Shown here: one piece after another, positions 4,340-58,562 of the stretch | Layout of the letters: each line of letters begins with the position of its first letter | Position numbering within the stretch: position 1 is the first letter of the stretch | Assembly: GCA_951406725.2 (NCBI GenBank) | Contig: OX597834.1 | Span: 27,900,001-27,964,000, forward strand | Direction of reading: 5' to 3' | Origin: Octopus vulgaris | Taxonomy: Eukaryota | DNA length: 64,000 nucleotides | The notes under the pieces: model-generated | The model's database searches: none | Told to the model about the DNA's origin: nothing | The model's input: only the letters and a program-made list of their open reading frames with translations | Program-made: the position numbers and the translations under genes

Positions 4340-4377
4340 CTGTTACTCTGAGTTTCTCGTTGCCGTTCATCAGACAG
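4340..4377 (-). ncRNA. Minimal type I hammerhead ribozyme motif
   Basis: Minus strand reads ctgt-CTGATGA-acg gcaa cga-GAAA-ctcagag-TA-acag. The core is canonical, stem I is ctgt/acag, and stem II has a basal mismatch. Confidence 0.65.
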
Positions 4378-4573
4378 TTTTTGCTAGAATGGAACTTATA
4401 TATTAATTCAATCTATCTTTTTTCCACCTTGTTTCACATTTATGTGTTTACTCCGGTATATATATATATATATATATATACGAAATTAATTTGTGTAAGA
4501 ATCAATACGAAGGGTACTCCATCTAATGAGAGTCTGATATTACTATAAATGCTTCATAGTACATGCATTGTAC

Positions 4574-4617
4574 GCACTTCTAATTGTTTCACGTGCGCAA
4601 GTACGTTCGTCGGGTGC
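4574..4617 (-). ncRNA. Degenerate hammerhead-like motif
   Basis: Minus strand reads gcac-CCGACGA-acgtac ttgc gcacgt-GAAA-caattag-aa-gtgc. The cleavage triplet is not intact. Confidence 0.35.
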
Positions 4618-4835
4618 TGATTGAACTATGCAAGCAAGAGGTTTACATTTAAATAGAGGACAGGTGTGAAGCGGTACGAACGCAAAACGTACTTAATTGA
4701 AGATGCCACCAAGATGAGTAAATGAATAATTAAAAGAAATTAAATTAAAAATTTTAAATAAATAATCAAATAAAAATTATATATATAATAGTAAAAGGTA
4801 TATTCTCTATAAATTTAAGATATATTAAAAGATGT

Positions 4836-5166
4836 GAAGGCGCATGGCTCAGTCGTTAGAGCGTCGAGCTTACGATCGTGAGGTTGTGAGTTCGATTCCC
4901 GGACTGGGCTGCGTGTTGTGTTCTTGAGCAAGACATATTATTTTACGTTGCTCCAGTTCACTCAGCTGTAGAAATGAGTTGTGACATTACTAGTACCAAA
5001 CTGCATCGGCCTTTGCCTTTCTCTTGGATAACATCAGTAGTGTAGAGAGGGGAGGCTGATATGCATGCGCGACTGCTGGTCTTCCACTAGCACCCTTGAC
5101 CGGACTTGTGCCTCGGAGGGTAACTTTCTAGATGCAATCCCATGGCCAATCATGACCGAAGGGGGT
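4836..5166 (+). mobile_element. tRNA-derived SINE, head D (CORE-like centre) with tail type 4
   Basis: A box tggctcagtcg, B box gagttcgattccc, then gttcttgagcaagaca...ttgctccagttcactcagctg. A homolog lies at 53679-53983. Confidence 0.85.
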
Positions 5167-5400
5167 TTTCTCCTCCTCATTAAAATATAATTCTAAAAAA
5201 ACGATAAAAGTCCGAATGAAAAGTACGATGAAAATACAAAATATAACTGTAAATATGTACATATGAAAGAAAAACTGACATTATATTATATATACGAAGA
5301 TTCTAAAGAACCCAAAGACCATACGTTCAACTCATACATACACAAAGCCACATACAATATATACATGTGTGTGTGTATGTATGTATGTATACATATACAT

Positions 5401-5518
5401 ATCACGTGATCACGTGACCGACCAGACCATCAGATGTTGTTACACATCGCTGGTCACAATGCGTTCGCATTGTTTTAGCCTTCGAATGACGCCATCCCGC
5501 TGGCTAAGCGAGCAGGCC
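5401..5518 (-). mobile_element. SINE tail type 2 fragment
   Basis: Reverse complement matches the tail of 42956-43261 (ggcctgctcgcttagccagc...ggtcacgtgatcacgtga). Confidence 0.8.
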
Positions 5519-5659
5519 ACATATACATACATATACATATATTTATAGATATATATACGTATGTATGCATATATGTATACGTATACATACATACATATAT
5601 ATACATATATAAATACATATATATATATATATATATATATATAAATATATATATAGTAT

Positions 5660-54784: not shown

Positions 54785-55800
54785 AAATATTTATTATTAT
54801 TCTTATAACCATTATTATTATTATTATTATTATCATTATTATTATTATTATTATTATTATTATTATTATTATTATTATTATTATTATTTGTTTCTTCGTT
54901 TATACGTTTATGAATTTGCTTCCACGAGTTCGTGAGTTCGTGTGTGGACGTCACGTTTCGGAAATATCACTTATGTTCCTGGAAGGATGCGTGGAAATTT
55001 ATGGTTGATGTTCAAGTGAGGAATTAGCAGATTATTATTATTATCATTATTATTATTATTATTATTATCATTATTATTATTATTATCATTATTATTATTG
55101 TTATTGTTATTATTATCATTATCATTATTATTATCATTATTATTATTATTATCATCATTATTATTATTATTTGCAGTAGTAGTAGTAGTAGTAGTAGTAG
55201 TAGTAGTAGTAGTATATCCTTATTATTACTGATATTATTCTTAATGTTTTATTAGCATTGCGGTTATGATTATTATTATTATTACTATTGCCATTATTAC
55301 CACTCTTGTTATCCTTACCATAATTGTTATTACTATTATTATTGTTAATATTCTCATTATTGTTATTATTTATCACTACTGTTATTATTATTATTGTTGT
55401 TGTTAGTTTTGTTGTTGCTACTGTTGTTGTTATTATTATTATTATTATTATTATTATTATTACTATTATTATTATTATTATTACTATTATTATTATTATT
55501 ATTATTATTATTATTATTATTATTATTATTGTTATTATTGTTATTATTATCATTATTATTATTATTATTTTTATTATTATTATTATTATTCCCAGTTTTG
55601 TTATTATTATTATTCCCATTTTTGTTATTATTATTCCCCTTTTTGTTGTTGTTGTTGTAGTTGTTGTTATTATTATTATTATTATTATTATTATTACTAC
55701 TACTACTACTATTATTATTATTATTATTATTATTATTACTGCTATTATTATTATTATTATTATTATTATTATTATTATTATTATTATTATTATTATTATA
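54785..55800. repeat. (TTA)n-dominated tracts
   Basis: Direct reading; similar tracts lie at 60438-61135. Confidence 0.9.
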
Positions 55801-56606
55801 ACTGAGTTATAAGTTTATGGGGTTTACTGGGATTAAATTCGAATTAATTTCCTTGTATGTAATGTATGTATGTGTTTGTGCATGCATGTATATGCGTCAT
55901 AAGAGTGTATGCATTTGTATATATTCATAATGTGCGTTTGTATTTACGTATATGCATGCATGTGTGTATGTGTCTATATATGCGTTAGTGAATGTTTGCA
56001 TGTGCGTCGGTATGTAAACGTGTGCCTGCGTATATAGAAATCTCTATGTATGTCGATGTATGCCTGCATGTATGCGTATATATGTGTATGTGTATGTGCG
56101 AGTGAGTACGTTTGTATGCGTGTGCATGCTTATTAAATTCATATATACGTCCCTATGTATCCTTGTATATATGCACTGATGTATATATATATATATATAT
56201 ATATATATATATCTGTAAGATGTGTGTTTCCATGCACACATTTGAGTGAATGCATGCATGTATGTTGTTGTATGTATGTGTATCGATATGTGTGTAGGGG
56301 CGTAAATGTGTTTATCTGTGCACATGCATGCATTAAGTATGCATACATGCTAGTATATATGTATTCAAGACGTGTGAATATATGTACATACGCATATAGG
56401 AAAGCACCCTGGCATTTCTGCATGTATCTATGTATATACTCATATATGCATATATATATATATATATATATATATATATATATATATATATATATATATA
56501 TATATATATATATATATATATATATATATCTATATATATATGTATATATATATACACACATATATGTAAAGATATATATATATATATATATATATATATA
56601 TATATA

Positions 56607-56790
56607 CTCTTTTGCTATTTTACTTGTTTCAGTCGAGCAAATCGACCCCAGGACTTATTCTTTGTAAGTCTAGTACTTATTCTATCGCTCTCTTTTGCCG
56701 AACCGCTTTGTGACGGCGACGTATACACACCAGCATTGGTTGTCAAGCGATATTTGGGTGACAAACACAGACACACAAACATATACACGC
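56607..56790 (-). mobile_element. SINE family A, 3' half with deletion
   Basis: Tail matches other A copies. Confidence 0.8.
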
Positions 56791-57024
56791 AAACATACAC
56801 ACGTAAATATATATATATATATATATATATATATATATATATATATATATATATAAGTTCAACCTTACAGTAGTCTGGAACAACTGAATCTTAGACAGTC
56901 AGTTGATGGTCTCCACTACCTCAAATGTTCTTAAAATTTAAATTCACATCTTTGTCTATATATCTACCTTCTCTATAATGTTGCCACTTGATATGAAAAT
57001 TTTTGTATTAATGGAAAACCTCTA

Positions 57025-57117
57025 TAATTGGCTGATGAGTGCTCAGCATTTTAAAACTGTTGTAATACTTACAACATTTAATAAAATGATGTAGTACGAA
57101 ACGATCGTACCAAATTA
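57025..57117 (+). ncRNA. Type I hammerhead ribozyme, canonical core, long stem II
   Basis: taattgg-CTGATGA-gtgct...tgttgtaa tac ttacaaca...agtac-GAAA-cgatcg-TA|ccaaatta, with predicted cleavage after 57109. Confidence 0.8.
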
Positions 57118-57827
57118 CCGGAGTCATTCTTGTTGCTTATTTTGATTATATATATATATATATGTATATATATATGTGTATATATATATATATATATATA
57201 TATATATATATATATATATATATATATATATATATATATATGCCACGCTGTAGTAACGAAACTTGGACCTCGTGTTTGCGAAGCGAACTTCTTAGCCATA
57301 ATCCGTTTACTATATATATTCTTCTATCCCTCTGCCTCTCTCTCTCTCCTCTCTCTCCAGATGACCAGTGTTCGACCAAGCCTGACCTTTCTTTCATGGT
57401 TCGACTACCATCCGTGCAACATCTGCATTCCTCCCCATGTCTGTCATCTCTCATGTCCCTGCCGTAAGGCTTCACTACCACACACCAGCTTAATTTAATT
57501 CGTCCTTAGTCGAAAGACACCTTTTGTTAATGTCCTGCCATTTGCATTTGCATTTGTGTACCATTTCTCAGGGGTTTTTTTACCATCCTTGTTTTCGTAT
57601 ACATTCGCTGCTTTCTTCCAAGAAACCTAGTTCTCTTAGCTTAGTTTTTCCTTCTGGTTGGCCAGACTGTAGCAATCTCGAGTATAACCAGCCAAAATTG
57701 CAATGGTAATCTGGAACTCGCTTAAATAAAGAAATGACCCGTCCTTTATTTTTCTTGCCCTTTTTTGTATCATCTGTCTGGATATTTTGCATTCTTGTCC
57801 GATATTTTGTATTCCTTTATATATATA

Positions 57828-58562
57828 TAATATAGGATGAAGTTTTTTTTCTACAGAAAAAAAATTCCATCAAAACTATGTGGAAATTGACGATTTAATA
57901 GTCTGTTATCAGCATATTGGCATTGAAATAATTTTCTTTAGCCCTTACTTATAAGTTGTTTATAATTTTAACCGCAAAGGTATTTTAATATGCTGCCACA
58001 TTTTTTATAGAACTTTTTTTCAGTAGAAAAAAAACTTCATCCTATATTAGTAATAGACTTATTACTACTCGCTATAGGGACTGGTAACCACTATAACCTG
58101 TAATGGAGAACAGTCAACACGTTGTGCTGAGGCTGACCAAAGAATTTTATTTTTAGATATATCTGGGGTGCTTATATGTACTCATGATTTTTGCTTCGGC
58201 TTTTTCCATGGGCGCATGTAAGTATCTTATTTATATCCTTTCGTATGTTCTACTGAAAAGGAAAGAATCTTTTATGAGATTAATTCCGAAATTGATTCAA
58301 TATAGAAATAACAGGCTTTTTAAAAAAATTCTATCGGCCGGCTAGCCTGATTTCAGTTCTTTGCTTTTTCTGTAGCGAGTAAATAATATGTGGAAATTGA
58401 CGATTTAATAGTCTGTTATCAGCATATTGGCATTGAAATAATTTTCTTTAGCCCTTATTTATAAGTTGTTTATAATTTTAACCGTAAAGGTATTTTAATA
58501 TGCTGCCACATTTTTGATGGAACTTTTTTTCTGTAGAAAAAAAACTTCATCCTATATTAGTA
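57828..58562 (+). mobile_element. Penelope-like pLTR arrangement: direct repeats plus an inverted terminal copy
   Basis: Direct repeats at 57877-58052 and 58387-58562. 57828-57875 is the reverse complement of 58512-58559, and a hammerhead motif lies inside. Confidence 0.7.
58248..58307 (+). ncRNA. Hammerhead motif with G8A change
   Basis: ttcta-CTGAAAA-ggaa..aatct tttatg agatt..ttcc-GAAA-ttga t tcaa-TA-tagaa. Confidence 0.6.

Follow-up and report, generated by a model that had tools for sequence, protein, structure and literature searches.

Hammerhead motifs in TA-bordered islands of Octopus vulgaris and their place in Penelope-like insertions

In a stretch of 64,000 nucleotides (nt) of the Octopus vulgaris genome (assembly GCA_951406725.2, contig OX597834.1, positions 27,900,001 to 27,964,000, forward strand; hereafter the window), hammerhead ribozyme motifs are scattered over short non-coding islands, which raises the question of what these islands are and which enzyme placed them there. 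The genome, 2.8 Gb in 227 contigs, is AT-rich and dense in simple repeats. A first-pass annotation of the window regarded the islands as mutually unrelated, mostly bordered by (TA)n, and as products of many non-autonomous retroelement families. We report that all motif islands are the 3' ends of Penelope-like element (PLE) insertions of nine families, here called A to I. It is very probable that the hammerhead folds lie in the 3' terminal repeats of nine TA-ending PLE families, whose copies were likely made by a PLE reverse transcriptase (RT) that used both strands of a cut TA tract as primers.

Anatomy and joining of the insertions

The islands are indeed unrelated between families, in that a self-BLAST of the window links only the two copies at 9.4-9.99 kb and a 54-nt piece of family B; each, however, belongs to a genome-wide family, with 74 to 3068 first-look candidates (all such counts are lower bounds, and 40 matches were scored per search). 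The (TA)n borders were borne out for eight of the nine islands, which have their 3' end directly on (TA)n, the exception being the island at 20050. Each family has two fixed 3' end sites with a tail between them, the hammerhead lies 22-170 nt from the fixed 3' end in all families, and the inserts mostly consist of two arms placed head-to-head.

This anatomy was scored most fully in family A, whose tail measures ~68 nt. Nine loci duplicating other loci were excluded, and for two complex loci the outermost ends were taken; the remaining 51 distinct loci gave 81 terminal ends directly on (TA)n (43 without a tail, at the inner site, and 38 with a tail) and three more on (TC)n or behind a short spacer. 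Of 42 two-armed loci, 38 combined one tail with one no-tail end, none was symmetric, and four with an interrupted arm were left unscored. The count was 19 of 21 both in a first sample, not selected for end type, and in a second, which favoured no-tail ends, so that pairs of no-tail ends would have been expected there, yet none was seen. The same one-tail rule was followed at 8/8 loci in family C, 9/9 in G, 2/2 long two-armed loci in B, 2/2 in a young Neptune-like PLE and 3/4 in D. The insertion type of endonuclease-bearing (EN+) PLEs, an inverted 5'-truncated partner with the tail at one end, was found in A, B, C, D, F and G. That a 362-nt retrozyme (family A) inserts like a PLE supports both PLE mobilisation of retrozymes and two-site, two-strand priming.

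In the mechanism that we propose, a cut TA tract would offer both of its strands as primers to a PLE RT. A single enzyme complex would begin one complementary DNA (cDNA) at the end of the tail and its partner at the inner site; a chance match of 1-5 complementary bases would then join them, often within the strands that pair in the hammerhead itself. The tandem families A and D (units of 362 and 510 nt), which encode nothing, would borrow the PLE machinery, and their multi-unit arms would need an uncleaved multimeric or circular RNA template. The fullest form of this mechanism, in which the 362-nt repeat was inserted by a PLE enzyme with an obligatory tail-end start on one strand and an inner-site start on the other, copying round uncleaved multimeric or circular RNA, is in our estimate an even call.

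For rotifer Penelopes it has been suggested that a single (antisense) template primes itself or folds back; two arms might instead arise in that way here, and palindromes at inverted junctions have been so interpreted (PMC3846280). Some junctions here lie on palindromes (A: loci L224 and L241; B; G), and a 54-nt inverted copy at 9989-10042 is compatible with fold-back at (TA)n. Most family A junctions, however, connect two different unit positions; the arms are unequal in length and in 3' end type, each ending at a fixed start site on its own TA tract; and fold-back on a single template does not alone yield the one-tail rule. We therefore consider fold-back unlikely as the source of the two arms. 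The 54-nt copy deserves description in its own right: it is an exact mirror of the family B copy 10316-10369 across a 270-nt TA tract and is joined to a family A arm, with the one-tail rule obeyed, and it may have come either from a second RNA template in one event or from fold-back copying at the TA palindrome. Fold-back copying of flanks as a general feature was rejected, as seven other one-armed A loci had no inverted flank copy, except for TA-only matches in one.

The joins between arms bear on whether the RNA template had been cleaved. Family A junctions were mapped against a natural unit from locus L014, since the window unit has a private base; two very short arms of L010 were left unanchored. 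Among 43 junctions, 30 overlap by 1-5 nt and one by 12, three are blunt and nine carry extra bases. Of the 86 arm starts, ten are no more than ~5 nt away from the predicted cut site, where a uniform distribution would give 2.6, and 31 of 41 family F loci have one arm beginning exactly at the cut site, as would be left by cDNA run-off at a hammerhead-cut RNA end. The uniform expectation is, however, a crude yardstick, oversimple as truncation declines with length, and four of the six nearest A arms retain, 5' of the cut site, 2-4 bases not attributable to overlap, which is better explained by stalling on uncleaved RNA than by run-off at a cut end. In addition, arms traverse the cut site repeatedly, the cut site in F coincides with the border of the 6-bp stem I complementarity through which the arms are joined, and insertion in vitro was reported to be unaffected by hammerhead mutants (PMC11167929). 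Run-off at a cut end is accordingly improbable in our view, and the junctions point rather to uncleaved templates. With a palindromic stem III of only 2-4 bp, cleavage by most motifs would require a dimer, and a truncated copy standing alone in the genome would likely be inert; motifs of this kind are described in the literature as cutting as dimers, weakly.

The family F join itself cannot separate cleavage from overlap. Of its 41 loci, 25 have the window form, six have the loop flipped, three have hammerheads on both arms, three have long upstream sequence and four show other joins. Identical sequence variants occur in 2-4 architectures, which indicates that the join is rebuilt at each insertion, via the complementary stem I strands. 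The 149-nt family F was considered as a mini-element that perpetuates itself; this reading was rejected, the variants being shared by the window-type, flipped, both-arm and long forms.

Tandem families and protein-coding elements

Families A (motifs at 9573 and 9935) and D (58248), with units of 362 and 510 nt, look non-autonomous on present sequence, that is, like non-long-terminal-repeat (non-LTR) retrozymes. A contiguous open reading frame (ORF) was absent from 51 A loci, from 20 loci of a sister family, A2 (79-88% identical to A), and from 15 D loci. Family A arms at all 51 distinct loci consist of unit repeats only, with runs of at least six consecutive units, and most full-unit matches are 98-100% identical across chromosomes. 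Between A and A2, two lineages only, two pairs are changed on both sides (in stem II and in the stem III palindrome), a count reached in 200 of 500 shuffles, and 94.9% of the stem positions are paired, versus 19-46% when slid. At L245:1076-2058 (the same place as L049), an A2 arm continues into family D in one orientation, a chimera that suggests a template jump between retrozyme RNAs.

We find it improbable that A and D are ordinary pseudo-long terminal repeats (pLTRs) of autonomous PLEs, with arrays formed after insertion by local DNA amplification (unequal crossing-over) instead of copying from multimeric or circular RNA. Amplification is proposed as one route of retrozyme birth in a 2026 preprint (10.64898/2026.07.22.740005), retrieval of top-scoring copies biases towards pure tandem loci, and A has the core of an autonomous Neptune-like element. 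On the other hand, 15 family C loci, retrieved as the A and D loci were, often included an ORF; the units are near-identical between chromosomes; and the arrays lie within both arms of single insertions, with PLE-type ends intact.

Of the first reading of the islands, the presence of many TA-targeting, hammerhead-bearing families of PLE type holds, but a non-autonomous origin does not hold for most of them: the islands at 4340, 4574, 10417 and probably 57025 are 5'-truncated ends of protein-coding Hydra-clade PLEs. An ORF was contiguous in families C, B, H and, at one locus, E. The family C parent is a ~3.35-kb unit in which a frame of 727 amino acids (aa) is open in many copies at 99-100%, encoding an RT and then a C-terminal endonuclease, with RWK, DKT, CxxC and CxH motifs and no CCHH. 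Its endonuclease used as a query gave at least 17,448 first-look candidates, other families included, and all 150 of 150 scored matches were 99-100% identical and stop-free. The linker reads CNCKNESSC in L078 and CNFKNESSC in the other copies examined, and a CxCX5C linker is intact in the family B ORF pieces. Pfam returned no match for the Hydra-type proteins, and atlas look-alikes of the family C protein carry GIY-YIG/HTH_animal in part of the members. Family C also has a canonical 3' hammerhead and (TA)n insertion and, placed by its motifs against the Hydra definition and the printed alignment (PMC8557442), its parent is a Hydra-clade PLE. In family B, RT-EN is contiguous upstream in L212 and 41% identical to family C; in family H, an endonuclease lies ~630 nt upstream of the matched stretch in L213; and a Hydra-type ORF piece upstream of family E, at L214 only, suggests that the E end probably derives from a Hydra-clade PLE.

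The tails of B, C, F and H (for example L077:4600-4670 and window 35475-35540) contain a short hairpin, RCUC...GAGY, with AC/UC and then a run rich in U behind it. It sits just beyond the inner start site and is a candidate RT-binding signal; in Hydra-2_Amil (supplement of PMC8557442) it has a compensated pair. The hairpin was rejected as a universal feature of Hydra elements, as short-motif searches of that supplement found only Hydra-2_Amil and a third Hydra-type family lacks it. This third young group (L280-L287) has 899-aa frames in 3.6-kb tandem units, and its hammerheads have a stem II of 50-55 nt and stem III palindromes that covary (CACGUG, CAUAUG, CAUGUG).

The Penelope RT remnant at 8031-8498, put forward in the first-pass annotation as a sign of a mobilising clade, is present and attests PLE machinery in this genome, but it is an old Neptune-like copy whose relatives had no link to any window hammerhead family in 15 loci. 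It is 84-87% identical to its nearest 39 relatives, and 70% (aa) and 81% (nt) identical to a young intact relative. The latter (L265-L270) has a 784-aa RT-EN frame and an overlapping upstream ORF in 4.4-kb tandem units, a UUGAAAA hammerhead as in family A, a 32-37-nt tail and TA ends; its protein shows a CGRPNCGIC linker, RVT_1 at E=3.5e-8 and GIY-YIG at a sub-cut-off E=4e-4. Both would be Neptune-like, the clade name following from the linker as described in the available text of PMC8557442.

Several observations weigh against the reading of two-strand priming by a PLE enzyme. The loci are the best-scoring 40 of each search and not a random draw; the second family A sample was biased to no-tail ends, as was the family F sample to its junction; and the family D copy in the window, with a tail on both arms, is the sole exception to the one-tail rule. 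No parent ORF was found for A, D, F, G and I, with which the young Neptune-like family, the third Hydra-type family and its relatives, A2 and extended F loci had no terminal repeat in common. Family A has the U3-A8 core of the young Neptune-like PLE, but its 68-nt tail is Hydra-like, and it has no BLAST similarity to the young Neptune-like or Hydra-type elements. Covariation inside single families is slight, because the copies are near-identical. Finally, the Poseidon PLE in vitro was reported to use the start site alike on both strands, from which strict asymmetry is not predicted (PMC11167929).

Hammerhead motifs and features of the window

Both strands of the window were scanned with a strict descriptor (YYGANRA; stem I of at least 4 bp, II of at least 2 and palindromic III of at least 2; stem II region up to 90 nt; one spare base permitted), and 200 local dinucleotide shuffles served as the control. 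Exactly the six motifs taken as intact in the first-pass annotation, including their palindromic stem III, were recovered (Table 1); it had named no strand, and four of the six lie on the minus strand. The count averaged 0.115 per shuffle and never exceeded 2; none of the 200 reached 6. The count is not blind, as the descriptor was broadened only after the motifs at 57025 and 10417 were known; a narrower first descriptor, with a short stem II limit, found four of the six against 0.01-0.05 in shuffles. All six satisfy the type I order (core YYGANRA ... GAAA ... UH, three stems), and RNA folds of the A, B, D and E motifs recover stems I and II. Chance matches within AT-rich repeat DNA are a highly improbable source: removal of the stem I requirement leaves 9 cores, barely above the shuffles (mean 3.8; 3/200 reach 9), and Rfam hammerhead models are absent among the best 150 of 635 window rows (those 150 being simple-repeat matches to microRNA and similar models), but the strict count and the fixation of cores within families, the location 22-170 nt from a fixed 3' end in every family and the near-identity to published Hydra hammerheads refute a chance origin for the six intact motifs, while the 20050 family (G) stays doubtful.

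Of the core variants proposed for this genome, three are fixed in families: UUGAAAA in A (93/93 matches), CCGAAGA in B (14/14) and CUGAUGA in two families (33/33 and 13/13). The fourth, CUGAAAA, is private to the family D copy at 58253 and, with G8 kept in 15/15 other copies, is by comparison of copies a one-copy mutation breaking the C3-G8 pair, not a family variant. At family level, the 3-8 pair is U-A in A and is kept as well in B, C, D and E; it is broken in the 58253 copy (C3,A8). UUGAAAA is the published U3-A8 core (PMC4209133). In a MAFFT alignment of eight motifs from different families, the cores failed to line up. Variant hammerheads have reportedly been surveyed by Lunse et al. in 2017.

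The motifs described as decayed at 4574, 35563 and 36097 proved to have relatives with intact core and stems. CUGAUGA, with a 4-bp stem I and a 6-bp stem II, is present in 7/9 other copies of H; relatives of F have the full motif with a 14-nt stem III region; and a GUCU/AGAC stem I is found in 7/9 relatives of I. At 20050 the motif is only partial: its hammerhead (20052-20129) matches none of the descriptors used, and family G copies, 77-84% identical, keep the core and a 5-bp stem II with a stem I of at most 3 bp.

Table 1. Hammerhead-bearing islands and related features of the window, with first-look candidates in the genome
Feature	Positions	Strand	Candidates	Remarks
Family C, young Hydra-clade PLE, miniature insertion with two arms	4307..4456	-	at least 529	38 of 39 other scored matches at 100% along the 110-nt arm; tail-less left arm at 4307-4416; right arm (+) at 4416-4456, holding the final 41 nt of the 70-nt tail; (TA)n on both flanks
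Family C intact type I hammerhead core	4344..4373	-		Strict descriptor; CUGAUGA; stem III CUC-A-GAG; predicted cut after UA
Family H, old tailed 3' end of another Hydra-type PLE	4481..4700	-	at least 74	Match continues 5' past the query bound
Family H decayed hammerhead	4578-4613	-		
Neptune-like PLE, broken RT fragment	8031..8498	+		In-frame stops; outside every hammerhead island here
Family A, non-coding tandem repeat with a 362-nt unit (1.6 units), non-LTR retrozyme type	9408..9990	-	at least 1203	No-tail 3' end on (TA)n at 9408
Family A hammerhead, canonical-type, U3-A8 core	9579..9608	-		Strict descriptor and A2 comparison; predicted cut after UC; 6-bp stem I extended beyond internal loop, 4-bp stem II, stem III CGCG
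Family A hammerhead, second tandem copy	9941..9970	-		Strict descriptor
Family B tail, last 54 nt, head-to-head with family A arm	9989..10042	+		54/54 identical to inverted 10316-10369
Family B, 5'-truncated tailed end of a Hydra-clade PLE	10318..10482	-	at least 127	RT-EN contiguous upstream in L212
Family B hammerhead, CCGAAGA core	10423-10473	-		Strict descriptor; long stem II, one spare base
Family G, old two-armed insertion	19960..20285	.	at least 2537 (around 20050)	Tail on right; outer bounds approximate
Family G decayed partial hammerheads	20052-20082 and 20093-20129	- and +		
Family F, 149-nt two-armed insertion	35475..35623	+	at least 96	Arms joined through stem I strands; tail on left arm
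Family F hammerhead	35563-35601	+		A6G in window copy
Family I, one arm ending on (TA)n	35930..36204	+	at least 3068 (around 36097)	Left bound approximate
Family I hammerhead	36097-36136	+		Stem I broken in window copy
Family E, 5'-truncated no-tail end	56856..57146	+	at least 1849	Hydra-type endonuclease upstream at one locus only (L214)
Family E intact hammerhead	57032-57109	+		Strict descriptor; 59-nt branched stem II
Family D, tandem repeat with a 510-nt unit (1.35 units) and a 47-nt inverted tail piece	57830..58563	+	at least 1694	No contiguous ORF in 15 loci
Family D hammerhead	58253-58302	+		Strict descriptor; private G8A

Other features were noted in passing. Different PLE-type inserts stand side by side in TA tracts at window 4137-4700 and in L265, L267, L251 and L261, where each insertion seems to seed the next. 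A short unit is repeated many times inside TA runs at 5660-6060 and 6456-6582, with another repeat separating the two at 6073-6450. Two abundant repeats of 185-187 nt, resembling short interspersed elements, form tandem dimers at 14171-14541, 30056-30434 and 39852-40224. Extra hammerhead-like motifs of families without window copies were seen at L266:6758, at L283:1745, upstream in L117 and in the right flank of L020.

Known systems and significance

PLE hammerheads, the U3-A8 core, Hydra elements at (TA)n and retrozymes are already in print; the families described here are new. The hammerheads of the Hydra clade, its TA preference and an octopus member, Hydra-1_Obim of Octopus bimaculoides, have been published (Craig 2021, PMC8557442). 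As far as that paper was available, the families here resemble Hydra-clade PLEs in the ORF with a C-terminal GIY-YIG-type domain, RWK, DKT, CxxC and CxH and, in the family B pieces, a CxCX5C-type linker; in the near-3' hammerhead, (TA)n targets, one-end tail and inverted 5'-truncated partner, as in Hydra-1_Obim and Hydra-2_Amil; and in the stem III CUC-N-GAG, found here in B and C. They differ in that several are young and abundant, tails measure 56-100 nt versus 30-40, most family C copies have CNF at the linker CxC, and family C is distinct from Hydra-1_Obim.

Metazoan non-LTR retrozymes are described as 170-970-nt tandem units of low GC with one type I hammerhead each and no ORF (Cervera and de la Pena 2020, PMC7229834; Li et al. 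2026), and coexisting PLEs have been proposed as their drivers from shared motifs and phylogeny (PMC7229834; preprint 10.64898/2026.07.22.740005). Family A shares the tandem units in this size range, the type I hammerhead, the low GC, the lack of an ORF and the presence of PLEs in the same genome and, unlike the retrozymes in the portions of these papers available to us, combines a U3-A8 core with PLE anatomy (two fixed 3' ends, head-to-head arms and TA targets); the main text of the preprint, in its available part, does not mention tails or target-primed reverse transcription. The likeness of family A to retrozymes is drawn from genomic sequence, whereas known retrozymes are defined also by unit-length circular RNA. 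With the PLE hammerheads surveyed by Cervera and de la Pena (2014, PMC4209133), the motifs share a palindromic stem III, a spare base beside stem II, U3-A8 covariation and the occurrence of numerous sequence families in one genome, for the most part as single motifs left by truncated PLEs; U4C (CCGAAGA), fixed in B, and the 59-nt branched stem II of E were not encountered in the accessible part of that survey. No published report of hammerheads in these families, or of retrozyme tails or inverted arms, was found in a search that covered mostly open-access papers and the main text of the preprint.

Frangieh et al. (2024, PMC11167929) reported that, in the Poseidon PLE PAc, the tail corresponds to the spacing of two sites at which RT begins, and that each target strand is cut and then extended. 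The inserts here agree with that system in the two start sites flanking a tail, the AT-rich targets and the probable use of uncleaved RNA, as far as the available text describes them. No strand bias in the start site was seen in vitro, in contrast to the genomic inserts, which pair the two sites almost without exception.

The inverted repeats and one-sided tail of PLEs have remained unexplained, and an in vitro system was called for in PMC8557442. If the proposed mechanism is true, the one-tail rule across inserts of Hydra, Neptune and retrozyme type would reflect a coupled, asymmetric integration with two active sites, unseen in the sole in vitro system, and young intact Hydra- and Neptune-like ORFs together with the small A and F templates would make such coupled integration directly testable; the 38-to-0 pairing, the 1-5-base joins and these ORFs provide a sharp prediction and ready reagents. 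Family A itself bears the PLE insertion scar, which bears on the question of which enzyme moves animal retrozymes, and PLE-type two-arm insertion may account for many of the small hairpin islands in the TA tracts of such genomes.

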